Of a stretch of 64,000 nucleotides of DNA, positions 4,978-59,934 are shown piece after piece. This stretch comes from a virus (Duplodnaviria; Caudoviricetes). The stretch covers positions 884 through 64,883 of the IMG/VR virus record IMGVR_UViG_3300048123_000029; one strand, written 5' to 3'. The notes below the pieces were generated by a model. The model had not been told where the DNA came from. It made no database searches and saw nothing but the letters and a program-made list of their open reading frames with translations. The position numbers were made by a program, and so were the translations under genes. Numbering within the stretch: the stretch's first letter is position 1; the number at the start of each line of letters is the position of its first letter.

Positions 4978-5271
4978 ATGACACTATATTACCAGACTAA
5001 TACGTGGACTAGTCAACCACAACCAACAGAAAAAGCCGTAGAAACCTGGAAACACGCATCCACTAAGGCTAACTGGCGTATTGTTCAGTTACCAAATGGA
5101 TTCTACCAAACAGAAATAAAAGTACCAGACGAAGATTCTTGGAAAGATATTACAAGGAGAGAAACTATCGAGGGTGCAGAAGCGGCAATTGACGGATCAA
5201 TTCAATATTATCAGAAAAAACTTGATTTTATAAAAGGCCCTAAAGTTGTAAAGACTTTTGAAAAAGAGTAA
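4978..5271 (+). CDS. Hypothetical protein preceding GroEL
   Basis: 97-aa ORF with an A-rich leader. Confidence 0.6.
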   Translation: MTLYYQTNTWTSQPQPTEKAVETWKHASTKANWRIVQLPNGFYQTEIKVPDEDSWKDITRRETIEGAEAAIDGSIQYYQKKLDFIKGPKVVKTFEKE

Positions 5272-5291
5272 ATAATTTAAAATTTAATTTA

Positions 5292-30912: not shown

Positions 30913-33900
30913 ATGTTCAAAATAAAAATAGACGGCGTTGAGTATGAAATTAATGATTCTAACATCGGTGTTTTTCAAAACGCTTATGGCGATTTAGAAC
31001 AATACAAAATAGAAGAAAATACTTTTCAACAAGACCCTGCAAGTGCGGAGACAAATGTAGGGTCGAAAAACAATACGGTCTCCAATTCGGAAAATGGTTT
31101 ATTGGAATCAAATCAACCACCTGAAAGATATATTAATTATAAACGTAACGGTAAAGACGCTTCAATGTCTGAATCCGAATATAATAATTTCTATGCAGAC
31201 TTAGAGGACAAAGGTAGATACCCTGCGGAATTTGATGTTTATGTTGCAAAAACTTTTCCAAATACTAAAATCCAAACGACAAACTTTGACGAGGGCGCGA
31301 TGCTTGACGAGGTTGTTGTTAAAGCAGAGTTATCAGACGAAGTAAAACAAGCTAAAAAAGACAGCACAGAGCTTACTGCAGTTATTGAAGCTGAAACACC
31401 TGAAGCAAATTATGAAGAGATCGCAGGGGATTATTTTACTGGATTAAACGACGATGGTCAAATAACTGGTATGAATAGACCTCAATTTTTTCCTACATTA
31501 AGAAACTCCGACGGATCGCCCCAAATGTGGCAAGGTAAGGAAAGAAAAAGTGGATTTTCAGAATATAAAAATGATTATGATACTGATTTAAAAAACCATT
31601 TAGGCCCTGTAAAATACAAACAGTATATAACCGCCAAAGAATTAGCTGAAGCAAACGGTGAAAATCTTACAAAAGAAAACGTAAACCAGTATATTAGTTT
31701 AGAATTAATTCAAGATAACAAAAACGACAAGACTATAGACTCTGTTGTAGCTAGTAAAAGAAGTAAGGCTGCTGAAAATTACACAAGAGACATAGGCGGA
31801 TTTTATGTTACTGATGAAGAACAAAAAAGACAGGATTTATTAGAGCAATTTACTGGAACTGATGAAGTTGTTACAAAGAAAAATACTGCTTTATTAAATG
31901 AAAAAGAAAGAGCGCTTAGAGATGCTAGAGATTTTGAAGCTAAATTCGGAAGGCCATTAGTTAGAACTGAAAAACTTCAGGGTAGAACATATACCCCATT
32001 TAACAGAGAGCTTACCCTTAATAAAGTACAAGAGGGAGAAGAAAAAAGAATAGCAAAAGAAGCGGGTGAGATTGAAAGTGCAGTAAAAATATTTGATACT
32101 CAAGCAACAGAGTTAAATAATGTACAGGATGAAATTAGAAACTACAATGTAGAACAAGATAATTTTAACAATCCTGAGGAGGTTGCTTTTAGAGATAGCT
32201 TATTTGATCGCCAAAGGGTATTAATGAACGAATTACAAGCTGATCAATTAATACTTCAAGCCCGAGCTGATAAACTTACCAATGATTTAAATGTGTATAG
32301 CACGACAAATGTGGCTGACGCCGCTTTAGTTAAGTCTTACCAAACATCGGATTTGCTAGCGAACACATGGGAAAGCGCTTTTTTAGGTTCAGCAGCCCAA
32401 TTAGGGGGTGCTATAATTTCTCCTTTTGATGGTGGTATAACTTATGAAGCTGCAACTAATTATAATCAAAGACTGCAAAGTGAGGCTCAAAAATATTTAC
32501 CACAAGCTTTAACAAGCGATGATGACTCAAGTGCAGCGCAGTATTTTGGGGACATGCTCATCAGGAACTCCCCTTCAATAGCTGTGGCTGCTGCAACAAT
32601 GGGTGCAGGTGCGGGGCTAACCGGCGCTGCTAGGCTTGCCGCTATAAGACAAGCATCCAATGCTTCAATGGGTATATTCTTTACTATGGAAGCTGGTGGG
32701 CAGTTATCTAATTTAGAGATTCAGCAAAGAGAAGCGCCAAAAATGATCGCTGCTTTAAATAAACAAATAGAAGAAGCAAAAGCTAACGGTACACCCCTAA
32801 ACGAAATAAATAAATTAGAGGCAGATAAAGAATATCAAGAAAACATATTAAGCTTAAACGCTTTTCAAAAAGGGTTTAACAGTACAATTTATGGTGGAAC
32901 TGCCGCTTTAGCTGAAAGACTAGGATCTTTAGGTTTTGTTAAAAACTTTCAAAAATATTCAAGAGCCATAGGCGGTAACACGTTAAGAAAACAATTCGGT
33001 GAAACCTTAGGCACTAATATAAGTAAAGGCTTAGGTAACGTTACTGCTGTTGGGGCTATAGGCCCAGGTATAGAATTTATTGAAGAAGGTGCGACATTAA
33101 TTGCGCAAAATTTAAGTGATAACTTAATTTTTCAACCGGAAAATCCTAAAAGTTTAATTGATGGTTTAGATGGCGAATTTTTTAGAAATACGTATGTAAC
33201 ATCTTTAGCTATTGGTGGAGCGGGTGCAAGCCAAAACGTTATGACTGCATTAAACAATGAAGTTAAAACTAGAAAGCAAGCTAGACAAGAAAATGAAATA
33301 CGCGATAAATTAATAGATGTATCAAATAAGCTAAACACATTAGACGGCAGAACAAAGGAAGCTAGAAATTTAAAACAAGAAAGAGACAATCTAATAAGTG
33401 ATGCTGCAGATTTAAATACAGCAATACCTTTAAATTTAAAAGGTCTTACTGGCAGTGAAATAAATAGAGTCTTTGAGAATGCTGCAAGCATTAGAAAATT
33501 AAAATACCAAGCTTCCCAATTAGATTTAGCTAGTTTTGATGCAAGAGATCGTAGAGAATTCGAGCGATTAAAAAATGCGTCTCAAGTTTTATATAATGAA
33601 AGCCAATCAATATTAGGTAGATCAGAAGCTGAAATAGAAAAGTTAGCAAAAAACACACCAAACCCACTTGTCACGGAGGTTAACTTTCGCAGGTTTAACA
33701 TGTTTAAAGAAATCGCTAAAGAAACTAAAGGTGTTAATGTCATAGATATAAATAACGAGGAGCAGTTTAACGCTTACTTAAAAGAAAACAAACTTGATGG
33801 CAAAAAATATAGCTATACGGCTATGAACGAAGGTAATAACAGCGCAGCTCAGGTTAACAATGATATATTAATTTTTAATGAAATCGCCGCAAGAAATATG

Positions 33901-36900
33901 CAACAACCGGGTATTGACGGTGAGGTTGCTTCGGCTTCTCCTTTGCATGAGTTGGGCCACTGGCAAGTTAAACAGCAGGGTATAATAAAAGACAACAAAA
34001 TTGTTAGCGCTTCTAACGATATGGTTAGTAGTATTATAAATGATGTTAGGTCTAGGTTTAATAAAGGAAGCATATCTAAAGAAGCTTTTGATAATTTTAA
34101 TGCTAGAATTGCCCTATACAAAGATGTAGATGTTAAAGGAATAGACGCTGACGAGTTATTGCAATTAGTTTCAGACTTTACAGCAATAGGCGTTTTGCCT
34201 AAAAGTAGTTTTGGTAATATATATGGGGCAAAAACATTTGTAAACAGTATACTTAAAAAAGTAAATGGCGACTATTCTCATTTCTTTAAAATTAATTCAC
34301 CGAGCGATGTGTATGCGTTTGTTGCTAACTGGCAAAATAGAGCATTAGTATACCAATTACCTGAAGGGGAAGAAAAAGAGGGTGATAAAATTAAATCATC
34401 AAAGGCTGTAGAGAAGGTAAGACAAAGACTTGAATCAATACCATTAGAACAATTACCCTCACGCGCCAGTCAAAACATTATAGCTAATGAATTATTTGGC
34501 ATGGTAGATGCACAAATACGTAATAGACTTAATTTAGATCCAAACGTAAGAGAAGAGCTACAAGCTGACGTAATTGCAAGAGTATATGAAGCACAAGAAA
34601 ATACTAAATGGGACGGTAGGGGCAGCTTATATGGCTTTATAAACGGCCGTATCGCTAAGCGTATACTAGATGCTTTAAGAGCAAATCCAGATTATCTTGA
34701 TGTTGTAACAAAACAAGAGCTTACTGGTTTAGAAAAAGCTTCTGAAGTTGTAGTCGATGATGTACAAACAGCAAAAAAAGAAAAGCCTAAATTTAGAAAC
34801 TTATTACAAAGCAAAGTATTACCCGCTGACGCTTTAGAATCAGTACAAAAAAAATTGCTTAGTACAATAAGAGTGCTAAAATCAAAACTAGGCGCCGACA
34901 TTTCTATAAACAAAACAGTTACTCCTTTGGTAGCTGAGATTAAAAAAGAAATGGGTAAGCAGGCTGATATTGAATTTAAGAAAAGGTTAGGCTCAAAGAA
35001 AGATGGCATACTAAGAAAAAATTATCTTAGATTTAAAAAACCTATATTAGAAAACATGACAACCACTTGGTTGATGGGCGCTATGCCATTTGCTGTTCAA
35101 AAACAAGTTAATGGTAAGTTTACATCTGACTGGCAGGGCAAAAAGATTGACAGAGAAACGGTTGATACAGATAAAGCGGGTAGAACATCAGGCGCTGATA
35201 TAGTTAGAAGATTACCTAATATTGCAGATAAAGTTACTGACGAGCAATTTTTGTCTTACATGTTTAAAGACGGAGCTGTTATTCGTGGTCGTAAAGAATC
35301 TTTATCGAAGGCATTAGCCGAAGAGCTTGCGTTTGATTTATTTAATAGTGAATTACAAAAGCCAGACAGTGAATTAAGAAAAGCATTTGTAAATAATCAA
35401 GCAGCATTAGGCGCTGAACTTGCAGATAACTTTGTTCAAGAAGTACAAAAAGATACAGAACGAGGTAATATAAAATTTAGTAAAGGATTAGCTACATTAA
35501 CACCTGCAGAAAATGAAACTTTTAGAGATGGATTGCCAAAACTAAAAGAACTTATAGTAGGCATGGACAATGATTTTGGTAAAACGCCAACTGCAATTAA
35601 AAAAGTTCTGCAAAACACATATGGCGATAAATTTACTAAAAAACAATATGACGGTATATCTAAGCAATTTTTTAACTTATTAAAACCGTTAAATAAATCA
35701 TTCCCTAAAAAGTATGTTAATGTAAGTGAACAAGAACTAACAGATTATGTAGAGCAAGTTGCGCAAGATGTAGATGGCAATGCTTCTATACAATTATATA
35801 CAGGTGCTAGCGATTCTATTAAAAATTTATGGAACACAGGCACGAACGTTTATATAGCCCAGGAGGCTATTGAAAATGCGTTAAGCGAGTTACCTATAGA
35901 GACTGTTGTGGCTTTCTTTAGCGGTACTTTTGCTAACTCTGGCAAAGTTGGAATGCGTAACTTTAAAGACGCTAATGAAAGTTTTAGAGCTGATTTTTAC
36001 GGAGGTGAGGCTCAATGGCTTCCGGCTTTAAAAAGGATGTTCCCGCAGCTTGAAAGTATACAGAAAAACGGTGACATTGTTTTAAAAAACGGTAAAGTTA
36101 TAAAGAAAAAGTTTACAGCAACAGGCAGCGTTACTAAAGGCATGCTTGAAGCAAACTTTAATACAGATAAAGATATTAAAAATGCAACAGCTGCTTGGGA
36201 ATTTACTACAGCTGTCGTTAGGGGTATTAAAAATGAAAACCCCGACATACAAGCTATGGTTTTAGCGGCAATGAATAGCGGAACTAATACAGCTTTAAGA
36301 GTAGCTGCTCCTGTATTATATAGAACAGCGGGTTTTAATTCATTAGATAAAGATGATTATAGATACGAGCATGCTTTACCTGCTAGACGGGTTCTTTTTG
36401 ACATGTACAAGTCTATCGTGAAGGATGATAAGTCTATAAGCCTACAAGCGCTTAAAAACGATTATAAGGTCGCACTAATACCTAAGACAATGGATAAGGT
36501 TATTGGTGATCAAGGTTTAGGACCTATAGCAGTTGCAGGTTATGTTGCTGGGCAAACGCCATGGTACAGTCGCTATTATAATATACTAACGAGAGGAAAA
36601 GTACAATATGCTTTGGAATCTTTAGAGAATGGAGAAATTATTGGTCAAAATTATGCAGACTATTTTAATTCCACGTCTGATCCATTAACGGTTAAAACAG
36701 ACGCGCCAGCTGTAGTAGAAGCGAGTATAGCATATGAAAACGCTTTCAAGCTTTCAAAAGGCTTAAACTACGGTATAAATCCTAAAGGTATAACTGTGTT
36801 AGACTTTGACGATACCGTGGCGATATCTAAAAGCATGGTAATAGTTAAAATGCCAGTTCAAGACAAAGAGATATTGGACATAGCTGCTAGAAGAAAATTT

Positions 36901-39669
36901 AATAGCACTGTATTTAAAGACCTTCCTAGCTTTAAAAGATCATTTGATAATCTTTCAGAAGAACAAAAGCAAGAAGTTTTAAAAGAAGTTCCTGGCCCAA
37001 CTAAAAAAATTACACCAGCTGAGTTTGCAGCTGAATCGGTTAACTTAGAAAACCAAGGTGCTACCTTTGACTTTAGCGAGTTTAACAAAGTGGTTAAAGG
37101 CAGAAAAGGTCCATTGTTTGATTTAGCATTAAAAAGACAGGAAAAGTTTGGTAATGACAATATATTTATACTTACCGCAAGGCCGCAGGAATCAGCTTTA
37201 GCGATACAAAAATTTGCTAAAGGTTTAGGTTTAGATTTAAAGCTAGAGAATATAACAGGGCTCGCAGACGGAAGGCCAGAAGCAAAAGCCGAGTGGATGG
37301 TTGGGAAAGTTAACGAAGGATTTAATGATTTTTATTTTGCAGACGATCATTTTAAAAATGTTAAAGCAGTACAAGACACTTTAAGTTTATTTGATGTAAA
37401 ATCTGATGTTCAACAAGCTAAAATTAAATTTAGCAAAGGTCTAAATAAAAGTCTTAATAAAATGATTGAGCGCAACAAAAATGTAAAAGCCGAGGCTAAT
37501 TACTCAAAAGCGGTTGCGCGAAGAAAAGGAGCTAATAAAGGTAGATTTAAATTCTTTTTACCATATGGAGCAGAAGACTTTAGAGGTTTAACATCTTATG
37601 TTTTAGCCGGCAAAGGAAAGCAAGGAGATGCAGATCAAAAGTTTTTTGAAGATAATTTAGTTAATCCTTATGTAACAGGTGTAGCAGCAATGGAAAGAGC
37701 CAAGAGAGCATTAAAAAATGATTACGCGGCACTTAGAAAAATGTTCCCCACAGTTAGAAAAAAATTAGGTAAGAAAGTGCCAGGATTAGAATATACTTAT
37801 GACCAAGCTATAAGAATTTATTTGTATAATAAATCCGGGTTTGAAGTGTCTGGTTTATCTAAGCGTGATTTAAAAGCTATAAACAAATTTGTCGAAGGTG
37901 ATGCTGATGTAAAAGCTTTTGCCGATGGATTACAATTAATAACTAAAAAAGACGAATGGGTTAAGCCTAATGAGTATTGGGATGTGAGTAGCATATTACA
38001 AGATATAAACGAAATATCCGAAAAAGTTAGCAGAAAAGAATATCTTGCTGAGTTTATTGAAAATGTTGACGCTGTATTTGACGAGGCTATGCTAAATAAA
38101 CTTGAAGCGGTATATGGGACTGGTTACGTTGAAGCTTTAAATAATATTATAAGCAGAATGAAGTCTGGTGTAAACCGACCTAGCCAGCCTGGTAAATACG
38201 AAAGACAATGGTTAAACTGGGTTAACAATTCTGTTGGTACTATAATGTTTTTTAACAGAAGATCCGCTGTGTTACAGATGTTATCATTTGCTAACTTTGT
38301 AAACTGGAGCGACAACAATCCGTTAAAAGCGGGCATTGCTTTTGCTAATCAGCCGGCTTATTGGGAGGCATGGTCTAAAATATTCAATTCAGATAAACTA
38401 AAAGAAAGACGTGGAGGTTTAAAGTCCGACGTGCAAGAACAGGAAATTGCGAATCAAGCTAGGAATAGTAAAAACAAAGCAGGTGCTATAGTTTCTTATT
38501 TATTGAAAATAGGTTTTACCCCTACACAAATAGCAGATAGTATGGCTATTGCGACCGGAGGTGCTACGTTTTTAATAAACAGGACTAAAACATATACAAA
38601 ACAAGGCATGTCAAAAGCGGATGCCGAAGCTGCAGCGTTCGAAGATTTTAGTAAAATATCAGATGAGACACAGCAGTCAGGTGACCCTATGTTAATATCC
38701 GCTCAGCAGTCCAGCCATTTAGGGCGCCTTGTATTGGCTTTCCAAAATACGCCGATGCAATACACTAGATTAATGAAAAAAGCCGGCCAGGATCTTATAA
38801 ACGGCCGTGGCGACTTTAAAACTAATGTTAGTAAGATTGCTTATTATGGTTTTATACAAAACTTAATATTTAACTCATTGCAACAAGCTTTATTCGCTAT
38901 GATACCCGGTTTTAGTGATGAAGAAGATGAAGAAGATGTTGATAAAAAGCTAGATAAAAAAGAGTTAAAAATACTGAATGGAATGCTTGATTCTATATTG
39001 CGAGGCTCTGGTTTGTATGGTGCAATAGCATCTACGATTAAAAACGCATACATGCGCTACGAAAAAGAAGAAGAGAGAGGGTTTACCGCTGATCATACTT
39101 ATACATTGTTGGAGCTTGCAAACATATCGCCACCTATAGGTTCTAAGCTTAGAAAAGTGTATGGGGCAATACAAACAAATAAATTTGACAGGGGTATTAT
39201 AGAAAAAAGAGGTTTAGAAGTTTTAGACAAGCAAGGTAACTTAAATTTAAGCCCATCATATCAAATAATAGGCGGTCTATCTTCAGCATTTCTTAACCTA
39301 CCATTAGACAGGGTTGTATCTGAAATTAATGCTTTAGCGGAGGCGGTTGATGATAGAAACACTGCATATCAAAGAATAGCTTTGTCCTTAGGCTGGAGGA
39401 CATGGGATGTTAGCGCTAAGAATGAATATCACGATTTTCTTAAACTAGCTATACAGGAAGAGAAAAAAGATGCTTCAAAGAAAAAAAGAGAATATAATAA
39501 ACTTGTTGCAACGCAAAAGAAGTTTGATAAACTAGCTGCGATGACTCCTGATGAAAAACGAGAGTACTTATTAAAAGAAAAAGCAAAGCGATCTGCTGCA
39601 GCAAAAAAAGCAGCGGCTACAAGAAAGCGAAACAAAAGAGTAAGAGATTCAATACTAAGATCAAATTAA
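30913..39669 (+). CDS. Giant internal virion polyvalent protein (zincin, sigma-region-2-like, HNH-like and HAD modules)
   Basis: 2918 aa. HELGH aa1012-1016; sigma2-like aa~1187-1256; YEHALP aa1818-1823; HAD DFDDT aa1964-1968, LTAR, FADD; four K[FLS]SK linkers. Confidence 0.7.
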   Translation: MFKIKIDGVEYEINDSNIGVFQNAYGDLEQYKIEENTFQQDPASAETNVGSKNNTVSNSENGLLESNQPPERYINYKRNGKDASMSESEYNNFYADLEDKGRYPAEFDVYVAKTFPNTKIQTTNFDEGAMLDEVVVKAELSDEVKQAKKDSTELTAVIEAETPEANYEEIAGDYFTGLNDDGQITGMNRPQFFPTLRNSDGSPQMWQGKERKSGFSEYKNDYDTDLKNHLGPVKYKQYITAKELAEANGENLTKENVNQYISLELIQDNKNDKTIDSVVASKRSKAAENYTRDIGGFYVTDEEQKRQDLLEQFTGTDEVVTKKNTALLNEKERALRDARDFEAKFGRPLVRTEKLQGRTYTPFNRELTLNKVQEGEEKRIAKEAGEIESAVKIFDTQATELNNVQDEIRNYNVEQDNFNNPEEVAFRDSLFDRQRVLMNELQADQLILQARADKLTNDLNVYSTTNVADAALVKSYQTSDLLANTWESAFLGSAAQLGGAIISPFDGGITYEAATNYNQRLQSEAQKYLPQALTSDDDSSAAQYFGDMLIRNSPSIAVAAATMGAGAGLTGAARLAAIRQASNASMGIFFTMEAGGQLSNLEIQQREAPKMIAALNKQIEEAKANGTPLNEINKLEADKEYQENILSLNAFQKGFNSTIYGGTAALAERLGSLGFVKNFQKYSRAIGGNTLRKQFGETLGTNISKGLGNVTAVGAIGPGIEFIEEGATLIAQNLSDNLIFQPENPKSLIDGLDGEFFRNTYVTSLAIGGAGASQNVMTALNNEVKTRKQARQENEIRDKLIDVSNKLNTLDGRTKEARNLKQERDNLISDAADLNTAIPLNLKGLTGSEINRVFENAASIRKLKYQASQLDLASFDARDRREFERLKNASQVLYNESQSILGRSEAEIEKLAKNTPNPLVTEVNFRRFNMFKEIAKETKGVNVIDINNEEQFNAYLKENKLDGKKYSYTAMNEGNNSAAQVNNDILIFNEIAARNMQQPGIDGEVASASPLHELGHWQVKQQGIIKDNKIVSASNDMVSSIINDVRSRFNKGSISKEAFDNFNARIALYKDVDVKGIDADELLQLVSDFTAIGVLPKSSFGNIYGAKTFVNSILKKVNGDYSHFFKINSPSDVYAFVANWQNRALVYQLPEGEEKEGDKIKSSKAVEKVRQRLESIPLEQLPSRASQNIIANELFGMVDAQIRNRLNLDPNVREELQADVIARVYEAQENTKWDGRGSLYGFINGRIAKRILDALRANPDYLDVVTKQELTGLEKASEVVVDDVQTAKKEKPKFRNLLQSKVLPADALESVQKKLLSTIRVLKSKLGADISINKTVTPLVAEIKKEMGKQADIEFKKRLGSKKDGILRKNYLRFKKPILENMTTTWLMGAMPFAVQKQVNGKFTSDWQGKKIDRETVDTDKAGRTSGADIVRRLPNIADKVTDEQFLSYMFKDGAVIRGRKESLSKALAEELAFDLFNSELQKPDSELRKAFVNNQAALGAELADNFVQEVQKDTERGNIKFSKGLATLTPAENETFRDGLPKLKELIVGMDNDFGKTPTAIKKVLQNTYGDKFTKKQYDGISKQFFNLLKPLNKSFPKKYVNVSEQELTDYVEQVAQDVDGNASIQLYTGASDSIKNLWNTGTNVYIAQEAIENALSELPIETVVAFFSGTFANSGKVGMRNFKDANESFRADFYGGEAQWLPALKRMFPQLESIQKNGDIVLKNGKVIKKKFTATGSVTKGMLEANFNTDKDIKNATAAWEFTTAVVRGIKNENPDIQAMVLAAMNSGTNTALRVAAPVLYRTAGFNSLDKDDYRYEHALPARRVLFDMYKSIVKDDKSISLQALKNDYKVALIPKTMDKVIGDQGLGPIAVAGYVAGQTPWYSRYYNILTRGKVQYALESLENGEIIGQNYADYFNSTSDPLTVKTDAPAVVEASIAYENAFKLSKGLNYGINPKGITVLDFDDTVAISKSMVIVKMPVQDKEILDIAARRKFNSTVFKDLPSFKRSFDNLSEEQKQEVLKEVPGPTKKITPAEFAAESVNLENQGATFDFSEFNKVVKGRKGPLFDLALKRQEKFGNDNIFILTARPQESALAIQKFAKGLGLDLKLENITGLADGRPEAKAEWMVGKVNEGFNDFYFADDHFKNVKAVQDTLSLFDVKSDVQQAKIKFSKGLNKSLNKMIERNKNVKAEANYSKAVARRKGANKGRFKFFLPYGAEDFRGLTSYVLAGKGKQGDADQKFFEDNLVNPYVTGVAAMERAKRALKNDYAALRKMFPTVRKKLGKKVPGLEYTYDQAIRIYLYNKSGFEVSGLSKRDLKAINKFVEGDADVKAFADGLQLITKKDEWVKPNEYWDVSSILQDINEISEKVSRKEYLAEFIENVDAVFDEAMLNKLEAVYGTGYVEALNNIISRMKSGVNRPSQPGKYERQWLNWVNNSVGTIMFFNRRSAVLQMLSFANFVNWSDNNPLKAGIAFANQPAYWEAWSKIFNSDKLKERRGGLKSDVQEQEIANQARNSKNKAGAIVSYLLKIGFTPTQIADSMAIATGGATFLINRTKTYTKQGMSKADAEAAAFEDFSKISDETQQSGDPMLISAQQSSHLGRLVLAFQNTPMQYTRLMKKAGQDLINGRGDFKTNVSKIAYYGFIQNLIFNSLQQALFAMIPGFSDEEDEEDVDKKLDKKELKILNGMLDSILRGSGLYGAIASTIKNAYMRYEKEEERGFTADHTYTLLELANISPPIGSKLRKVYGAIQTNKFDRGIIEKRGLEVLDKQGNLNLSPSYQIIGGLSSAFLNLPLDRVVSEINALAEAVDDRNTAYQRIALSLGWRTWDVSAKNEYHDFLKLAIQEEKKDASKKKREYNKLVATQKKFDKLAAMTPDEKREYLLKEKAKRSAAAKKAAATRKRNKRVRDSILRSN

Positions 39670-50540: not shown

Positions 50541-50550
50541 ATATAATTAC
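50541..50550 (-). promoter_or_regulatory. Putative middle promoter GTAATTATAT heading the recombination/replication block
   Basis: Identical to the 4938 element; 24 nt upstream of the ERF start. Confidence 0.5.
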
Positions 50551-50579
50551 ACATTTTTAATTGCATTTAAGTTCATAAC

Positions 50580-51332
50580 TTACAGATAATCAATCACTTG
50601 GTTTGCGTCAGTGTTAGCGATAAGTTTATTTATAGCTTCTCTTTTTATCTGTGAAACACGTACATTTGCAGTGTTTACATTTATATTTAATTTGCCTGCT
50701 ATATAATTAGCAGAGTGCTTGTCACAATCCAAACCGTATGATAATCTCAATACTTCATATTCAATACCTGTTAAGTGTTGTTTCATTAAACTTAACAAAT
50801 AAGCATTGAGTAAATTTATATTGTATGGTTCAGAATTATCTGGTATTTGAAACAATGGATTTTCCTCTTCTGTATTATAATTTACATCTATACTAGAAAA
50901 TATAGAATTAAAAAACATTGTAACAATTTTTTCATCTTTAGGATTCTTACGTATTTCAGTTAGCTTATGTTCTGGTATGCGTATGTCACCCCGGTTAATA
51001 TCAATCGCACGTCTTATAGCTCCTTTAATTCTTTTACTAAAGAAACTTTTTAAAGTTTTTTCAATATCTTCAGAGTCAATAAGCTTATCCCATTCTAACT
51101 TATCTACCGCAAGAGTTAAACCTTTGCTACCTTCTTGTATTAAATCGTTAATACTTAGTACTCCGGATGCTTGTTCTGATGTAGCGAACTTGCGCGCTAG
51201 ATTCTCAACAAGCGGTAAAAATTTTACAATTAACTCATCTCTTGTGTAGTAATCATAAAACTTATCTTCAGGCATAGACCGTTTAAGATCTTCCTTATAC
51301 CTTATATAGTTTTGTACATTGTACTTTTTCAT
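50580..51332 (-). CDS. Sigma-70-family RNA polymerase sigma factor
   Basis: Region 2 LPLVENLARKF...DLIQEG..GL..AVDK; region 3 IRIPEH; region 4 VLRLSYGL...IA..L...RVSQIKREAINKL. Confidence 0.9.
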   Translation of the reverse strand: MKKYNVQNYIRYKEDLKRSMPEDKFYDYYTRDELIVKFLPLVENLARKFATSEQASGVLSINDLIQEGSKGLTLAVDKLEWDKLIDSEDIEKTLKSFFSKRIKGAIRRAIDINRGDIRIPEHKLTEIRKNPKDEKIVTMFFNSIFSSIDVNYNTEEENPLFQIPDNSEPYNINLLNAYLLSLMKQHLTGIEYEVLRLSYGLDCDKHSANYIAGKLNINVNTANVRVSQIKREAINKLIANTDANQVIDYL

Positions 51333-54149: not shown

Positions 54150-54184
54150 TATATTATCGATTATACTTCGTGTTAAGTTTGTAA
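54150..54184 (-). promoter_or_regulatory. Early promoter-like motif, copy 1
   Basis: Minus-strand consensus TTACAAA-N3-AAYACGA-N8-CGATAATATA; 13 nt upstream of the KTSC ATG. Confidence 0.8.
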
Positions 54185-54185
54185 A

Positions 54186-54800
54186 TTAGTGAAACACTAA
54201 ACCTACCTTGTGATTTTTACTAAACCACTTTGTTGCCATCAGATCAATACTAGAAGCATCCACATAACCGTTAGATACAAGATCGCTATTAGTAGAAAAG
54301 ATTTTTGTGTGTCTGTGTTTTCTTTCATTTATCATATGTTTTTGCTTGCCTGAATCACTGAATATTATATCGTAATTACTTGGCAATGAAGTCTTTAGCA
54401 TCATATCTACCATATTGGTATAACTGTAAAACCGTACGCTTGGGTTGTGTATAGCAACTTCAATCCACTTTTTTAGATATGCGGGTGAGTAGTAATCTCC
54501 GCTATCATGGACTCTGACGTAATCAGGTTTCTTCTTACGTATTTCAGCGTTCATAGCCTCAACAAAGTTGTCAGTCTTTGTTAGCTGATAACGCTTCTCA
54601 AACGCCGGTTTTACATTAGACCAGATGTAGGCTCCTTTCTTGGCATAACAAAATTTAACGCATTCGTCAGCCATCGGGCATGTCAACTTACCACTTGCAG
54701 ATTTATATGCAGGTATACCGAAGTTAAACACGCGAAGCCCGAGTTCTTTACTTGTCTTTTTTAGTTTACTGTTCTGTGTCAGGAGATTCATAGTACTCAA
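54186..54800 (-). CDS. GP88-like protein (Cys-cluster, radical-SAM-related)
   Basis: TCPMADECVKFCYA, RVHDSGD, FYSYT. Confidence 0.7.
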   Translation of the reverse strand: MSTMNLLTQNSKLKKTSKELGLRVFNFGIPAYKSASGKLTCPMADECVKFCYAKKGAYIWSNVKPAFEKRYQLTKTDNFVEAMNAEIRKKKPDYVRVHDSGDYYSPAYLKKWIEVAIHNPSVRFYSYTNMVDMMLKTSLPSNYDIIFSDSGKQKHMINERKHRHTKIFSTNSDLVSNGYVDASSIDLMATKWFSKNHKVGLVFH

Positions 54801-54978
54801 TTATTTTTTCAATATCGTCTTCCATGTTTATAATGTCCCGCGCATATTCTAGCAAATCTTTAAATCCAGATAGTTCATAACTACTGAATTCATACACATC
54901 ACGCTCTTCGATCGCGTAGATGCAGTCTCTCATATCTTTTGCCGTGTTTTCGAAGCGGCAATAACTCATATTTGGCAT
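54766..54978 (-). CDS. Hypothetical early protein
   Basis: MPNMSYCRFENT..D..DC. Confidence 0.6.
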   Translation of the reverse strand: MPNMSYCRFENTAKDMRDCIYAIEERDVYEFSSYELSGFKDLLEYARDIINMEDDIEKIIEYYESPDTEQ

Positions 54979-54988
54979 AATTTTAGTA

Positions 54989-55273
54989 TTAGTCTAGCAA
55001 TACCATATAGGCTTCAATATTGTTTTTTTGAAACCAACGTAGTGCTTTGTGAAATTCATTTATTTGTTTACTTGTTACTGTTTTAGGTGCAACTTCCATT
55101 ACATACTGGCTACCCATAATAAAATCGTACATCGATAGCTCAACACCGTTTAGATCGTATGTTTCGCCGCTGAACGGGTTTGTTACTGTTTCACCATTTT
55201 CGTATATCATACCAGTAAACCATTTAGGCACCGACTGTTTCGTCTTCTCTTTCGTACTCATAACCTTCTTCAA
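54989..55273 (-). CDS. Hypothetical early protein
   Basis: VTNPFSGE...YDFIMG...AYMVLLD; start uncertain. Confidence 0.6.
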   Translation of the reverse strand: MKKVMSTKEKTKQSVPKWFTGMIYENGETVTNPFSGETYDLNGVELSMYDFIMGSQYVMEVAPKTVTSKQINEFHKALRWFQKNNIEAYMVLLD

Positions 55274-55685
55274 TTAGTTCGTTTTCAATTTCTTTTTTCT
55301 TATCATTGTAATAGTCGTCATATACTTCTTCAACAACTTCTTGAAAAGCATAGTCTTCATCATCAAGCTGGTCGTAGTATATGCTAGCGCCATCAATCAT
55401 AGCGTCAGGCATTTTTTCTAACCAGTCGTTATCGTAATAGTATACGTCTTCATTAACATTAGGGTTGCGATCATTGTCGGTTGCAATCCATACTTCATAG
55501 CCATCGGCAGTTGTTTCAGTATAAAACATCATGTCAGGTCTATTAGGCCAGTCGCTAGTTATCTTAAAATCAAAGTGATTAGCTATAGTTTTAAGCATGT
55601 AGTCATGGTCTAAATCTTCTCTTTCAAGTACGTTAATTTTACGTAACCTAGCGGCTATCAATTCGTCAGTTAGTATTTTACTCAT
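55224..55685 (-). CDS. Acidic hypothetical early protein
   Basis: 153 aa, very D/E/Y-rich. Confidence 0.6.
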   Translation of the reverse strand: MSKILTDELIAARLRKINVLEREDLDHDYMLKTIANHFDFKITSDWPNRPDMMFYTETTADGYEVWIATDNDRNPNVNEDVYYYDNDWLEKMPDAMIDGASIYYDQLDDEDYAFQEVVEEVYDDYYNDKKKEIENELIEEGYEYEREDETVGA

Positions 55686-55929
55686 AGTCTTTAGATATTA
55701 AAATGTTATCGCCGTATTTAAAATCCCACGCTGAAACTCTCATAAGCTCAAGGTTAGAAAATGTATATAACGAGCTAACGTCGCTAATTTTTAAGTCACT
55801 ATAAAATGTAGTGCTTGAAAAAGCCTCGACTATAGAGTCAATAGAAGCTTTGTATTTGTCGTTTTCAGAGGAATGTAACGCCTCTTTGATTTCAGGCTTT
55901 AGCCTTTCATAAATTGTTAGTCTACTCAT
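55678..55929 (-). CDS. Hypothetical early protein
   Basis: 83 aa, directly after promoter copy 2. Confidence 0.6.
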   Translation of the reverse strand: MSRLTIYERLKPEIKEALHSSENDKYKASIDSIVEAFSSTTFYSDLKISDVSSLYTFSNLELMRVSAWDFKYGDNILISKDYE

Positions 55930-55943
55930 GTTTGTTTGATTTA

Positions 55944-56150
55944 TTATATTATCGATTCTTGTTCGTATTCAATTTGTAAATTTTCTAACGCTATTTTATA
56001 ACCAAAGTTAATCGCCATTTGCATTAGTATTAAAGAGCCTTGACCGCATCCGCCAGCAAAGTTCTCTAGTTGTTCTCTGTCTTCAGGCGTTGCTACAATA
56101 CCTCGATCGAGCTTCGCCATTTCTGTTTTTATGTATTTATTTATTTCCAT
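55944..56150 (-). CDS. Hypothetical early protein
   Basis: Start moved to MEINKY (56150) because the longer track ORF runs through the tRNA-like element. Confidence 0.55.
   Translation of the reverse strand: MEINKYIKTEMAKLDRGIVATPEDREQLENFAGGCGQGSLILMQMAINFGYKIALENLQIEYEQESII
55945..55979 (-). promoter_or_regulatory. Early promoter-like motif, copy 2
   Basis: + strand TATATTATCG-attcttgt-TCGTATT-caa-TTTGTAA. Confidence 0.8.
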
Positions 56151-56152
56151 AG

Positions 56153-56221
56153 TGGACGTGGCAGGAATCGAACCTGCGTTTAGGTAATGCACAAAGCAGA
56201 ACCCCTATCCATTTCACGCCC
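56153..56221 (-). ncRNA. tRNA-like RNA (tmRNA tRNA-like domain or D-armless tRNA-Ala mimic)
   Basis: Acceptor GGGCGTG/CACGTCC with G3-U70 and A73; T-arm GCAGG-TTCGATT-CCTGC; no D stem; no encoded CCA. Confidence 0.7.
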
Positions 56222-56225
56222 AATT

Positions 56226-56462
56226 GAGAGGTGGACGGGACTGGAATGTTAGGAATGCACGTCATTTACTAGTATGCCCTGACTTATATCCTTTTATCTG
56301 TTTTATCCCGTCTTTCGCCTGCATACGTATCTCATCTCCGAGTTTCTATATGCGACAGCTTCCAACCTTAAACCTCTCTGTAGTGTGTCAAACATCCTTT
56401 CTGCTGCTTGCCGATTAGCAAGTTTCAACCATTCGTCATGGTCTTAGTGGGAAACACGCTAC
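56226..56462 (-). ncRNA. Candidate structured RNA leader of the tRNA-like element
   Basis: About 235 nt without a convincing ORF, containing several nested helices (see findings). Confidence 0.4.
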
Positions 56463-56647
56463 TTACGTCGCCAAGATCGGTGCACTGATGCGCTTACCTC
56501 TTGACTGACAATTTGTATTGTATTGCCCGTTTTATGCTCAATGATTGGGACATACGAGTATGTTTTAGTTGTTGAGCACTTCACACACGTGTTATATCCT
56601 AAGTCTAAACGGACAGGGTGTACTTTATTTCCACATCTACAATACAT
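56459..56647 (-). CDS. Small Zn-finger protein
   Basis: YCRCG...HPVRLDLGYNTCVKCS. Confidence 0.65.
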   Translation of the reverse strand: MYCRCGNKVHPVRLDLGYNTCVKCSTTKTYSYVPIIEHKTGNTIQIVSQEVSASVHRSWRRK

Positions 56648-56672
56648 AGTTTAATTTTTTATTTGTTACATT

Positions 56673-56707
56673 TATATTATCGATTTGCGTTCGTATTACA
56701 TTTGTAA
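56673..56707 (-). promoter_or_regulatory. Early promoter-like motif, copy 3
   Basis: TATATTATCG-atttgcgt-TCGTATT-aca-TTTGTAA. Confidence 0.8.
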
Positions 56708-56709
56708 AT

Positions 56710-56841
56710 TTAATACATATCCGCCTGCCACTGAGGTATACCTGCGTTGTATCTCTCCCAATACTGACGCTCGATCGCCTCTATTTGCACTCTTGTGAGT
56801 GGTTTGTGGCTAAATTTTCGTTGTTTTCTTTGTTTCTTCAT
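56710..56841 (-). CDS. Small hypothetical protein (43 aa, not in ORF track)
   Basis: MKKQRKQRKFSHKPLTRVQIEAIERQYWERYNAGIPQWQADMY. Confidence 0.45.
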   Translation of the reverse strand: MKKQRKQRKFSHKPLTRVQIEAIERQYWERYNAGIPQWQADMY

Positions 56842-57007
56842 ACATTTTAGCTATTGCGAGGTGCATAACGTGGCTGTGTATAGCATTAAAGTCATCACCG
56901 TCTTGTTCAAAATCCGATAGTTGCCATTCAACACTATCATACATTAGTTCCATTGTGACGTCAGCGACACCTTGTGCGATTTCGTCAAGTTCTTTCATTT
57001 TACTCAT
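56810..57007 (-). CDS. Hypothetical early protein
   Basis: 65-aa ORF. Confidence 0.55.
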   Translation of the reverse strand: MSKMKELDEIAQGVADVTMELMYDSVEWQLSDFEQDGDDFNAIHSHVMHLAIAKMYEETKKTTKI

Positions 57008-57116
57008 AGATATATTCTTCCATTGCGTTAATAAAATCGTTTTTATCGATTATTTTAGAGTCATAGCAGTTTAAATTGTATATAAACGCTTCGTATAATT
57101 CTTTATTAGTTGCCAT
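57000..57116 (-). CDS. Small hypothetical protein (38 aa, not in ORF track)
   Basis: MATNKELYEAFIYNLNCYD...; overlaps both neighbours. Confidence 0.45.
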   Translation of the reverse strand: MATNKELYEAFIYNLNCYDSKIIDKNDFINAMEEYIYE

Positions 57117-57348
57117 TTACAAAATCTTTATGTTTAGTTACCATCCATTCGCAATTGGAAAGCTTATGACCTGCACCGTGTAGGAATGCTTCGATTACTT
57201 CACTGTCGTCAGTTAAATCACTTACATCATATCTATATGCTTTGCCATCGGTATAGTCCATAATGAATACCCATTGTGCTTTTTGATGGTACGGTTTTTC
57301 GTTATTTTCTTCTTGCATCTCGTGCCATTTAGTTATTGTATCACTCAT
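57106..57348 (-). CDS. Hypothetical early protein
   Basis: 80-aa ORF. Confidence 0.6.
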   Translation of the reverse strand: MSDTITKWHEMQEENNEKPYHQKAQWVFIMDYTDGKAYRYDVSDLTDDSEVIEAFLHGAGHKLSNCEWMVTKHKDFVNGN

Positions 57349-57350
57349 AA

Positions 57351-57647
57351 TTAGTCTCCTGTATAGTTATCCCACCGGGTTTTACTCGCGTAGTACTCTG
57401 CACATCCGGCGTCATGCAGTCTACGTAATTCAGTATATCGATCGATATTATCTATTTTATCGTCAATTCTAGCTTTCATTTCAGCTTCTGTTTGGGCTGG
57501 TAAGTAGCTAACATTATAAGGCGCGAAGTTAAAGTGTTCACAGCCGTAACCGCTAGCTTGCTTACCGTTCCAAGTAGTCCACTCTTTGTAGTGGTAGGGA
57601 ATACCCCTATGCAAAAGCATCCCAGATAGTTTTTTTGTCTTCGACAT
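57351..57647 (-). CDS. Hypothetical early protein
   Basis: 98-aa ORF ending YTGD. Confidence 0.6.
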   Translation of the reverse strand: MSKTKKLSGMLLHRGIPYHYKEWTTWNGKQASGYGCEHFNFAPYNVSYLPAQTEAEMKARIDDKIDNIDRYTELRRLHDAGCAEYYASKTRWDNYTGD

Positions 57648-57810
57648 AAGTTAAGCCTTTGTAGTTAAACCATTGATAAATTCCGTCTTTATCTTTATCT
57701 TCATTATATTTGAAACCGAATGAAGGTGGCAGATTGCCTACTGTGTATGGTTTGAATTTAATACCATTAAGTTTAATAGATTTGTCGGTTGAAATTTTAA
57801 ATGTTTGCAT
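57607..57810 (-). CDS. Hypothetical early protein
   Basis: FKPYTVGNLP..F...WFNYKGLTY. Confidence 0.6.
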   Translation of the reverse strand: MQTFKISTDKSIKLNGIKFKPYTVGNLPPSFGFKYNEDKDKDGIYQWFNYKGLTYVEDKKTIWDAFA

Positions 57811-57834
57811 AGTATATTATTTATTTTATTCAAT

Positions 57835-57869
57835 TATATTATCGATTTGTGGTCGTGTTTATTTTGTAA
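57835..57869 (-). promoter_or_regulatory. Early promoter-like motif, copy 4
   Basis: TATATTATCG-atttgtgg-TCGTGTT-tat-TTTGTAA. Confidence 0.8.
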
Positions 57870-58110
57870 AAGTGCCATCGTGGTACATAGTGTGTATGTT
57901 ATTAGAGAACCTTTGTGTTTCCCACAGTTTAGTGTGTGAATGAGTTCTACCTTTGTTACCAGCACCTTTAGCTCGTACTTGTACACGTTTGTATTCTCGA
58001 TCGGTTAAGCCAGAGCAATAGTCACCTCTAGTTACTTCGATTCTATGTTTGCGATTCTTCGCTAGTCTTGAGTTTTTAACGTACTCACACGCTTCTTTCA
58101 TTGTCATCAT
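57859..58110 (-). CDS. Hypothetical basic early protein
   Basis: 83-aa ORF. Confidence 0.55.
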   Translation of the reverse strand: MMTMKEACEYVKNSRLAKNRKHRIEVTRGDYCSGLTDREYKRVQVRAKGAGNKGRTHSHTKLWETQRFSNNIHTMYHDGTFTK

Positions 58111-58394
58111 TGTACATTTCGTTTTACCCAGTTAATAATATATTCAAGTCGATCGAGTTCGTTAGGTATTAGTACTCGTTTGTGGTTATAGATAGTTACA
58201 TCCATTCTACCCCTGCCGTGCCATACGCCCGTCCAATACTCGTCTTTAATTTTTACCACTTTGTTTATTTGGTATAACCTGTCGAGTCGGTTGCTATCAA
58301 TTCTTATATAACCTGATTGATAAGATTTTATTTTACGTCCGTCGTTTAGTAGGAACGTGGTAGTTCCGTTATTATTTATTTCTATTAGTTTCAT
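58107..58394 (-). CDS. Hypothetical early protein
   Basis: SYQSGYIR...YQINK. Confidence 0.6.
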   Translation of the reverse strand: MKLIEINNNGTTTFLLNDGRKIKSYQSGYIRIDSNRLDRLYQINKVVKIKDEYWTGVWHGRGRMDVTIYNHKRVLIPNELDRLEYIINWVKRNVQ

Positions 58395-58399
58395 ACTTA

Positions 58400-58434
58400 T
58401 ATATTATCGTTAGGTAATCGTATTAGTTTTGTAT
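58400..58434 (-). promoter_or_regulatory. Early promoter-like motif, copy 5
   Basis: TATATTATCG-ttaggtaa-TCGTATT-agt-TTTGTAT. Confidence 0.78.
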
Positions 58435-58593
58435 TTTGTTTATTAAATCGTTTGCTAACATTTCATATGTTTCGCCATCTTCTAGGTCACATTCGTATTT
58501 AACGAAGTTCCATAGTTCTCGGTAATTGTTTTCGTCTTTAGAGTATAATTCCTTGAAGTACTCTATAGTATCGTCATTCCAGTGAAATTCCAT
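58423..58593 (-). CDS. Small acidic protein (56 aa, not in ORF track)
   Basis: MEFHWNDDTIEYFKELYSKD... Confidence 0.55.
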   Translation of the reverse strand: MEFHWNDDTIEYFKELYSKDENNYRELWNFVKYECDLEDGETYEMLANDLINKIQN

Positions 58594-58594
58594 A

Positions 58595-58729
58595 TTATTT
58601 AAATTTAGCCGCTACTTCGTAGATTTCTTGTTTGTCGTCGTAATCTAAACCTTCAGTTTGATTAGCGTACATTCTTAATACATAGTGTACAAAGACACAA
58701 TCGTTTTCGGTGAGTTTAATATTTTTCAT
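58595..58729 (-). CDS. Small protein (44 aa, not in ORF track)
   Basis: MKNIKLTENDCVFVHYVLRMYA... Confidence 0.55.
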   Translation of the reverse strand: MKNIKLTENDCVFVHYVLRMYANQTEGLDYDDKQEIYEVAAKFK

Positions 58730-58860
58730 TTGTTAGTTGATTTATAGTAGTTAATTCTTTCTAAGACTTCTTGTCTTTCTATAAGACCCTCCATTTGCTG
58801 TAAAACATCGGTAGACATATCTATTTGTTTTCCGTTTTCACAAGTAAGTATAAATTGCAT
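58726..58860 (-). CDS. Small protein (44 aa, not in ORF track)
   Basis: MQFILTCENGKQIDMS...; ATGA overlap with the next gene. Confidence 0.55.
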   Translation of the reverse strand: MQFILTCENGKQIDMSTDVLQQMEGLIERQEVLERINYYKSTNK

Positions 58861-58883
58861 AGTAGTTATTTTTTAAATTCATA

Positions 58884-58918
58884 TATATTATCGAATACAC
58901 CTCGTATTGACTTTGTAA
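58884..58918 (-). promoter_or_regulatory. Early promoter-like motif, copy 6
   Basis: TATATTATCG-aatacacc-TCGTATT-gac-TTTGTAA. Confidence 0.8.
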
Positions 58919-59006
58919 AAAGTATATAATTTGTTTATTAGTTAAAATAGTATTACAGGTATTGTACTCTACCTCTAAGTACCTAGAAAATTATTTACCC
59001 AAATAG

Positions 59007-59053
59007 TGTGACAATAGGGTGTTAAGTATATATAATAAGAAGCTATCGTCGCA
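59007..59053. repeat. 47-bp dyad element, copy 2
   Basis: TGTGACAATAG-N25-CTATCGTCGCA. Confidence 0.7.
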
Positions 59054-59188
59054 TACCGATCGATTGAATAAGTTATAGGTGGTTGCTATACACATCAGTT
59101 ACGATGCATACCTGCGATCTGTTCAACGTTATTTATACTGGTGATGCACACATCTCAACGCGCCAGTCCCGTTAGGGTTTGAACTAGA

Positions 59189-59503
59189 TTACTTTACTTC
59201 GTCTAGTTCAATTCTTTCGATTACATTAGTTCGAACATTCGAAGGCATATCGGTACTTTGAGACCAGTAACCTCTTTTAATCCAGCAAGGCATAATGTTT
59301 AGTTTAGGTAACATTACTTTAAGAACCTCATCGTGATTGTAAGTAATCTTTTGATTTTTGTTATTTACAAAGGTAATGATTTGGTTTCTACCGTACCAAG
59401 ATTTACGGACTACGAAGTTTTTACGTTCGATCGGTGGGAAGATTTCATTTAGTTCTTCTTTAGATAGTTTTGAAATTACTTCAGTTAATTTAGAATTTGA
59501 CAT
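59189..59503 (-). CDS. Hypothetical early protein
   Basis: 104-aa ORF after promoter copy 7. Confidence 0.65.
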   Translation of the reverse strand: MSNSKLTEVISKLSKEELNEIFPPIERKNFVVRKSWYGRNQIITFVNNKNQKITYNHDEVLKVMLPKLNIMPCWIKRGYWSQSTDMPSNVRTNVIERIELDEVK

Positions 59504-59536
59504 ATTTATTAATTTTAATTATTATTTATTTACATT

Positions 59537-59571
59537 TATATTATCGAATACCGTTCGTATTCAGTTTGTAA
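59537..59571 (-). promoter_or_regulatory. Early promoter-like motif, copy 7
   Basis: TATATTATCG-aataccgt-TCGTATT-cag-TTTGTAA. Confidence 0.8.
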
Positions 59572-59573
59572 GT

Positions 59574-59693
59574 TTAGTAGAAATCATAGTAGATATCTAA
59601 TACTTCAGACTTTTGTTCGTCTGTCAGCTGAGTGTAATGCTTATCGAATACTCTCCAGCTTATTTTCAATAGTGTGTAAGAAAAGTTTGACAT
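59574..59693 (-). CDS. Small protein (39 aa, not in ORF track)
   Basis: MSNFSYTLLKISWRVFDKHYTQLTDEQKSEVLDIYYDFY. Confidence 0.55.
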   Translation of the reverse strand: MSNFSYTLLKISWRVFDKHYTQLTDEQKSEVLDIYYDFY

Positions 59694-59723
59694 AGTTTAA
59701 GATTTTAAAGGTTATTAATTATT

Positions 59724-59876
59724 TTAGTAGCAGATATCGCAAGGGATATGACCTGCTCCGTTGACAGCAACATCGTAGCTTATTGCAATTAATGCTGCGA
59801 TAATGAATGCTGTAGTTCCGATGACCAGTGCTTGGCCCGCATACTTTAGGATGACTTTGTGATTGAATTTGTACAT
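59724..59876 (-). CDS. Small single-pass membrane protein (50 aa, not in ORF track)
   Basis: MYKFNHKVILKYAGQALVIGTTAFIIAALIAISYDVAVNGAGHIPCDICY. Confidence 0.6.
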   Translation of the reverse strand: MYKFNHKVILKYAGQALVIGTTAFIIAALIAISYDVAVNGAGHIPCDICY

Positions 59877-59899
59877 AGTTATTATTTTTTGTATTCATA

Positions 59900-59934
59900 T
59901 ATATTATCGTTAACCGATCGTGCTAAGTCTGTAA
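59900..59934 (-). promoter_or_regulatory. Early promoter-like motif, copy 8 (first in the transcription direction)
   Basis: TATATTATCG-ttaaccga-TCGTGCT-aag-TCTGTAA. Confidence 0.75.

Follow-up and report, generated by a model that had tools for sequence, protein, structure and literature searches.

We analyzed a window of 64,000 nucleotides that covers nearly all of the length of a 64.6-kb phage genome, and found that a giant cargo protein encoded in it very probably contains a sigma region-2 domain at aa1160-1262 (34390..34698 on the plus strand; delineated by an AF2 model, VIA-align, family profiles and co-folding). We further consider it fairly probable that a sigma-type factor injected in this form starts early transcription with the host core RNA polymerase (RNAP). 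Two ways of starting phage transcription are established, namely use of the host holoenzyme, in some cases chemically modified by injected enzymes, and injection of a polymerase; delivery of a specificity subunit alone would be an intermediate between the two.

The first 100 bases of the genome are found again at 64647 in a record classed as linear, and the genome is therefore circular or terminally redundant, with a length of about 64.6 kb. Its plus strand encodes the terminase, portal, capsid and a crassvirus-type muzzle gene (PF25729), followed by genes for proteins of 212, 404 and 2918 aa, the third of which (30913..39669, +) codes for the giant cargo or ejection protein. A capsid search among isolates recovered 85 Flavobacteriia phage records, mostly elemo and Cellulophaga phages, the best matches listed (Panino, elemo) being 44-49% identical; given these relatives, we infer that the host is a flavobacterium. 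A search of 185,579 genomes found no host record with the block described below. The same three-gene order is seen in phi18:3 (gp120, gp121 and gp123, annotated from MS/MS), and gp123, the third gene in that run, is an MS-detected virion protein. The N-terminal ejection module of the giant protein (~aa452-892; 32266..33588, +) is Gly/Ala-rich with one hydrophobic stretch, and its family HMM matched 15 isolate proteins, among them phi18:3 gp123 (E=2.5e-34), phi38:1 gp101 (E=7.5e-47), elemo gp1 (E=1.4e-52) and Panino gp69 (E=6.8e-14). The sequence-only reading had placed the giant gene at the position of virion cargo, and both its location after the muzzle/tail genes and the homology of its N-terminus to an MS-detected protein bear this out. 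The corresponding genes of crAss001 encode ejected cargo, including its RNAP (PMC10172136). While the Pachyviridae, Pervagoviridae and Elemovirus isolates (phi18:3, phi38:1, elemo, Panino) share the gene order and the homologous N-terminal module, their giant proteins lack both the sigma-like domain and the C-domain that follows it in the window.

Upstream of the sigma-like domain lies a zincin-like metallopeptidase domain (33760..34272, +; borders approximate) with its HExxH motif at aa1012-1016. An HExxH motif was found 120-600 aa upstream of the C-domain in 240/240 homologues (median 298 aa). This architecture recalls the phage polyvalent proteins, which are likewise large, virion-associated and multidomain, with an HExxH metallopeptidase (MPTase) and swappable domains, and whose MPTase has been proposed to free effector domains (PMC5512222). 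Besides the invariant HExxH, the present family shows a variable domain content (as seen in the coverage profile, a HAD-like motif in 70/205 members and kinase Pfam domains) and a late-gene context. By analogy with the proposal made for polyvalent proteins, the peptidase of the window protein is a candidate self-processing protease.

The sequence-only reading had noted the absence of an RNAP motif, and this proved correct on every search made: a PF00623 search was negative (0 of 1 genome, with 14/14 controls positive), the D-x-D-x-D strings in a six-frame motif scan of the genome, four in number, all differ from the catalytic form of RNAP, and no RNAP motif was found in the ORFs of at least 1200 aa of 17 relatives. 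An RNAP look-alike string occurs in 3/258 homologues, at unshared places.

The sigma-like domain belongs to a block of ~360 aa that the sequence-only reading had placed between two linker motifs, and its borders were confirmed: IKSSK lies at aa1160 (nt 34390) and IKFSK at aa1520 (nt 35470), while the peptide on which the sigma assignment was originally based begins at aa1187 (nt 34471), with its final motif at aa1249 (nt 34657). Similar linker motifs occur again at aa1945 and aa2171. Within the block, the region-2-like domain is followed by a low-confidence linker (34699..34782, +; model residues 101-130, pLDDT about 50-74) and by a basic, confidently modeled C-domain (~aa1291-1519; 34783..35469, +). 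The block is widespread, with 919 homologues and, in a separate count, about 160 loci, and its C-domain falls into 295 clusters at 50% identity; it was not found in any isolate phage. Among the long matches, the sigma module always sits inside the cargo protein.

An AF2 model of the block, built from an 85-row alignment, has a pLDDT of 87 and shows two domains joined by a loose linker. When residues 1-103 of this model were compared with 48,161 chains by VIA-align, sigma factors made up 13 of the top 15 entries, prenyltransferases appearing at ranks 7 and 10, and in a second look the first 17 of 50 were sigma entries. The best match, 7d7d chain F, which we take to be T4 gp55, aligned over 91 residues with an rmsd of 2.6 and a Z of 8.5, a value in the range that VIA-align labels as a common helical arrangement; SigB gave Z 8.0, rmsd 2.8 and 87 aligned residues. 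The region-2 helical fold of the sigma-70 family, as expected in the sequence-only reading, is present in the AF2 model as judged by VIA-align, but Foldseek against pdb and viral databases returned nothing at E<=0.001 for the block model. Independent evidence from sequence is weak but agrees with the fold. Among the profiles, one of 32 rows made from divergent members (A7) recovered SigB first (E=0.0013) and SigE second (E=0.032) among 13 hits to PDB sequences, and Sigma70_r2 was the Pfam family matched most often by individual members of the block family (5/85, best E=0.0018). ESM features placed two clusters named sigma-70 region 2 at the top, with scores of 0.94 and 0.93, at a recognition score of 2269, slightly below the 2300 mark. 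The window block as a single sequence gave 0 matches in Pfam and PHROG; PDB sequence searches with A1, with the 85-row profile A4 and with one divergent segment gave no sigma match; and when A4 was compared by HHalign with one sequence, that of the free sigma factor discussed below, the probability was 0.4%. Segments of two genomes (G102, G107) that by eye gave the impression of a textbook region 2 were not backed by Pfam, which yielded sigma matches for 0/9 divergent sigma-like segments. The sigma likeness of the block exceeds chance, yet it escapes single-sequence searches. The original pattern-based assignment to sigma-70 region 2 gains support from fold and profiles, with the addition that group-3 factors (SigB, SigE/SigK, sigma28) and phage sigmas are among the closest matches as much as ECF factors. 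Membership of the sigma-70 family is suggested by the predicted fold together with weak profile matches; region 4 was not found in the block.

A predicted interaction with the core enzyme points in the same direction. Co-folding with residues 200-370 of the F. johnsoniae beta-prime subunit, used as a stand-in host partner, gave a score of 0.65, against 0.00 for the best of 3 controls; the mark used is attained by 58/80 solved pairs and 2/110 mismatched pairs, and the score may reflect likeness to solved sigma-beta-prime complexes. The runs share at least 86% of their contacts, with a partner pLDDT of at least 77, and dock aa1187-1195 and aa1214-1228 onto a helical hairpin at beta-prime 292-319, which we take to be the clamp coiled coil. 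These two stretches, the predicted core-binding helices, would correspond to regions 2.1 and 2.2, and docking on a Flavobacteriia beta-prime, as had been anticipated, is what the models predict. The recognition helix follows, with F1242, R1246, R1250 and D1253.

The C-domain, of about 230 aa, is highly conserved in the close family and contains 42 K+R versus 31 D+E. Folded alone it gives a pLDDT of 90 and a pTM of 0.87, and this model matched no fold (best VIA-align Z 4.6 of 48,161 chains; Foldseek pdb nothing at E<=0.001), with ESM atlas scores of only 0.79 or less. A sigma-4 domain was sought in it, and neither a VIA-align entry nor a Pfam region 4 match was obtained. Two SigI entries that had suggested a sigma-4 or SigI C-domain (residues 8-328, rmsd 17) were lost when the domain was folded alone, and this identification was rejected.

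Turning to the promoters, the 35-bp motif singled out in the sequence-only reading is real. It takes the form TACA-N8-ACGA-N8-CGATAAT, with the TACA and ACGA boxes 12 bp apart and 21 bp from TACA to the -10 box, and occurs in eight copies, all on the minus strand from 54153 to 59933 and directly before small early genes (59903..59933, 59540..59570, 58887..58917, 58403..58433, 57838..57868, 56676..56706, 55948..55978 and 54153..54183, as located by a motif scan); with up to 2 mismatches allowed, the remainder of the genome contained no further copy. The last of these, site 8, precedes a gene run that includes a free sigma factor. A generic sigma-70 promoter scan was uninformative (50 sites observed versus 43.8 expected), and in the RNA runs no contig had a share above 0.18, while the 4 of 24 runs aligned yielded no start sites.

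The motif and the sigma module travel together. In records picked by the block, the motif was found in 26/43 and 15/50, the misses being mostly fragments, and in 13/13 and 2/2 of the near-complete ones. In the converse test, on records chosen for the motif, 18/19 near-complete ones have at least four sites, and all 18 encode the giant protein. A sigma-like segment follows the peptidase in each of these 18, by profile match in 13, as a borderline match in one and by eye only in four, so that 5/18 give no significant profile match for it. The block profile itself matched only 6 of the near-complete motif-picked records; twelve complete motif genomes that it missed carry divergent versions of the block in their giant genes. 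In six isolates that lack the block, the motif had 0 matches over all of phi18:3 and roughly 50-80% of the rest. The upstream boxes are also kept in the 12 complete relatives, in which the C-domain profile has no significant match; the domain that follows the sigma-like segment in these relatives goes unrecognized by the profile, which makes the part played by the C-domain the least certain. As a candidate reader of the upstream boxes, it is the weakest element of the reconstruction.

Across 433 sites the conserved positions are constant apart from -13, which is fixed within a genome and differs between genomes; -12G is present in 97% of them. In the window the recognition helix has an aromatic residue, R at +4 and D at +11 from it, spaced like Y76, R80 and D87 of P. 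aeruginosa sigma28, which reads the box GCCGATAA, with R80 meeting -12G and D87 making a van der Waals contact with -13C (PMC12784957). We compared the residue at the position of D1253 with the -13 base in 44 genomes, having set aside five genomes with insertions, one first-set insertion genome and genomes with fewer than 3 sites; near-duplicate genomes remain in this set, the anchors of 19 genomes were placed by eye, and the residue classes were chosen once part of the data had been seen. E goes with G in 6/6 genomes (42/43 sites) and A, G or T with T in 10/10 (98/106 sites), while D goes with C in 11/19 (the other 8 not being C) and N with C in 2/3; six other genomes have A, G or a mixture. 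The rule for E came from one genome at first and then held in 5/5 of the motif-picked set, and within one sigma subtype E accompanies G in 4/4 and A or T accompanies T in 4/4. R+4 of the embedded helix is not conserved, unlike -12G. Uncorrected Fisher values are small, but the motif state is clustered on all five trees examined, each of which requires 6-7 changes. Mantel correlations with the -13/-12 state are 0.35 for the free sigma, 0.34 for the C-domain, 0.21 for the sigma-2 domain and 0.06 for the embedded helix, and so speak more for general kinship than for helix distance. The independent-pair tests could draw on no more than 2-3 pairs (p 0.5-1), too few to reach significance, and no pair ran counter to the rule. 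The covariation is not significant once corrected for kinship. In one comparison, that of genomes G002/G004 with G006 (loci L009, L012, L015; L183, L184, L202), ERF and nrdA are 100% identical, the block is swapped (17-22% identity in sigma-2), the -12 base is changed at all 7 matching early sites and the free sigma is 83-84% identical; promoters and reader appear to have been exchanged or retuned together.

The free sigma factor, which the sequence-only reading missed, is a 250-aa protein of the sigma-70 family with regions 2 and 4 (50580..51332, -; SigA matches at E=8e-7, PF04542 at E=3.6e-5, below the cut-off). A second, short promoter-like motif of the YGTAATWAT class lies at 50542..50551 (-), before the replication genes, and sites of this class at 16120, 29004, 60229 and 4938 (+) precede structural genes; the pattern has six matches in the window, two of them inside or antisense to genes. 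This motif is alike in all groups and occupies matching places in many relatives. It suits the free sigma, which is probably a middle/late factor. One RNA contig ends at 50541, adjoining the second motif, a signal too weak to use. One genome (G014, L204-L206) has a frameshift in its free sigma gene, which may be an assembly error. The free-sigma matches in the genome search were six short contigs in MAGs of mixed labels and were set aside.

Taken together, we propose the following scheme. By homology and position, the 2918-aa protein would be made late, packed into the head and ejected with the DNA into a Flavobacteriia cell, where the HExxH peptidase may release the ~360-aa module by cutting at the K-F-S-K-like linkers, action of a tethered module also being possible. 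As the structure predictions indicate, the sigma-2 domain would then bind the host beta-prime clamp helices. At the eight early promoters it would read and melt the -10 box, NGATAAT, with the residue at the D1253 position setting the -13 base, as the covariation suggests. In the weakest step, the C-domain would replace sigma-4 and bind the TACA and ACGA boxes. Early transcription would yield the free sigma, which could then serve the YGTAATWAT promoters of the replication and structural genes. Sigma cascades of the SPO1 type are a known phage sigma system; here the outcome would be a cascade with its first member delivered in the particle. The most specific form of this proposal, in which a self-cutting polyprotein releases a two-domain sigma whose new-fold DNA-binding domain replaces region 4, in which this factor and host core RNAP alone start all early transcription at the three-box promoters, independently of host sigma and of phage protein synthesis, and in which one residue sets -13, is plausible, if somewhat short of probable.

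The main rival reader of the tripartite motif is the free sigma itself. The embedded domain could be a core-binding decoy that displaces the host sigma, for shut-off or core capture, with the free sigma reading the tripartite promoters; this we regard as unlikely. Co-folding cannot separate the two, as docking alone fits a decoy as well as a sigma. Moreover, the free sigma is present in 17/19 near-complete motif records, has a region 4 for the upstream boxes, and its distances track the -13/-12 state best in the Mantel tests. Against this, its region 2.4 helix is almost invariant across the genomes with C, T, G and A (88% identical between genomes, versus 28% for the embedded helix; Mantel r -0.08), and it has the constant second motif available to it. 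Further, its gene lies downstream of tripartite site 8, and there is no host-type promoter pattern on its strand between 46108 and 60000; it would therefore need itself to be made.

A second possibility, which we consider decidedly unlikely, would leave the -10 box to a host sigma (primary or ECF), make the block an activator or unrelated, and ascribe the -13 differences to differing hosts. GATAAT does resemble the sigma-70 -10 box, flavobacteria have several ECF sigmas (PMC9723704), and the middle promoters of phi14:2, which are tripartite, are read by the cellular holoenzyme according to a preprint. However, the TAnnTTTG box of the flavobacterial primary sigma (PMC9723704) is missing from the tripartite sites on the coding strand, while it is present in the two phi14:2 promoters inspected, and the 21-bp spacing from TACA to the -10 box likewise speaks against this reading. 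So do the near-identical genomes G002/G004 and G006, which differ at -12 in 7/7 sites along with a swapped block, although their free sigma differs too. The two phi14:2 middle promoters (L180, upstream of g070 and g075) combine the TAnnTTTG box with a TTGACA-like box.

It is very improbable that the block is a true sigma module that acts only as a newly made late protein, being removed before packaging or never reaching the cytoplasm. Some polyvalent proteins, such as P1 DdrB, are cleaved before packaging (PMC5512222), and the MS-detected homologues cover the N-terminal region only; but the motif marks small early genes and the operon of the free sigma, which are needed before any late gene, and the module is always inside the cargo protein among the long matches. 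That the block belongs to a structural ejection protein and resembles a sigma just as any helical bundle might is hardly credible: the middling Z scores, the interspersed prenyltransferases and the empty single-sequence searches would fit, but the structural matches, the family profile, the ESM features and the docking agree on a sigma, and a promoter base goes with one residue of the helix.

The proposed delivery of an early sigma-type factor as virion cargo can be compared with several known systems. The virion RNAPs (phi14:2 gp66, crAss001 gp47/49/50, N4 vRNAP) likewise carry early transcription machinery as virion cargo, and those of crAss-like phages share the gene position after the muzzle, with an MPTase alongside. 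In P23-45, another virion RNAP is reportedly fused to the tape measure. These proteins are catalytic, whereas the giant protein studied here lacks the DFDxD catalytic motif and is hence not a virion RNAP. Early transcription should be sensitive to rifampicin if, as proposed, the particle delivers no more than a specificity subunit. The tripartite middle promoter of phi14:2 differs in sequence from the eight early sites, and its early transcripts are described in the preprint as having no common motif, whereas the family of phages with the giant protein has a strict early motif.

Minimal phage sigmas of the T4 gp55 type are also sigma-2-only and borrow the host core RNAP, with a separate module taking the sigma-4 role (PMC7824862). 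They are free proteins made after infection and serve middle/late genes, while the block lies inside a 2918-aa cargo protein and is tied to early genes. With the group-3 sigmas (SigB, sigma28/FliA, SigE/SigK) it shares the predicted fold, the profile match, the aromatic/R/D spacing and the CGATAA box; unlike them, it has no region 4 match and no recognizable region 3, and goes with a three-box promoter with a 21-bp gap. An ECF (group 4) sigma is a small free protein with regions 2 and 4, whereas here region 2 is embedded in a 2918-aa ORF and followed by an unrelated domain of 230 aa. By these comparisons, the block would work like a minimal phage sigma and be delivered like a virion RNAP. Injected cargo directed at RNAP has been described as modifying enzymes such as ART and GNAT (PMC7824862), the word sigma does not occur in the main text of the study of polyvalent proteins (Iyer et al. 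2017; PMC5512222), and no report of a virion-packaged sigma factor was found in the literature searched, in which the nearest papers deal with virion RNAPs, sigmas made after infection and injected modifying enzymes.

If the proposal is correct, it would free the phage from the state of the host sigma and explain a private early promoter in a crAss-related lineage that has no virion polymerase, and, beside host holoenzyme and virion RNAP, hundreds of marine phage lineages would use a third means of starting up their genomes. The large family would also offer a natural series tying one residue to one promoter base, together with a domain of no known fold, and an orthogonal expression system for Bacteroidota would be possible.

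Several minor observations concern the promoters and the remainder of the genome. In three genomes (G008:59561-59631, G050:54492-54560 and G095:10930-11016) one copy of the tripartite motif is reversed, back to back with the first early site, and is a possible divergent promoter at the boundary between early and structural genes. GroES- and GroEL-like genes, named from sequence and annotated isolate neighbours, lie within the structural module (4978-6845, +). A Pfam/PHROG search of the whole giant protein gave nothing relevant. Its C-terminal ~680 aa (37438-39462, +) are conserved in every family member examined and have no Pfam, PHROG or isolate match. The giant protein further contains a DFDDT motif (36784-37407, +), presumably of the HAD-phosphatase-like fold, which it shares with 70/205 full-length homologues. 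Kinase-type Pfam domains (PF06414/PF13671), which the window protein lacks, are found in some homologues (P0025, P0029, P0059 and others).
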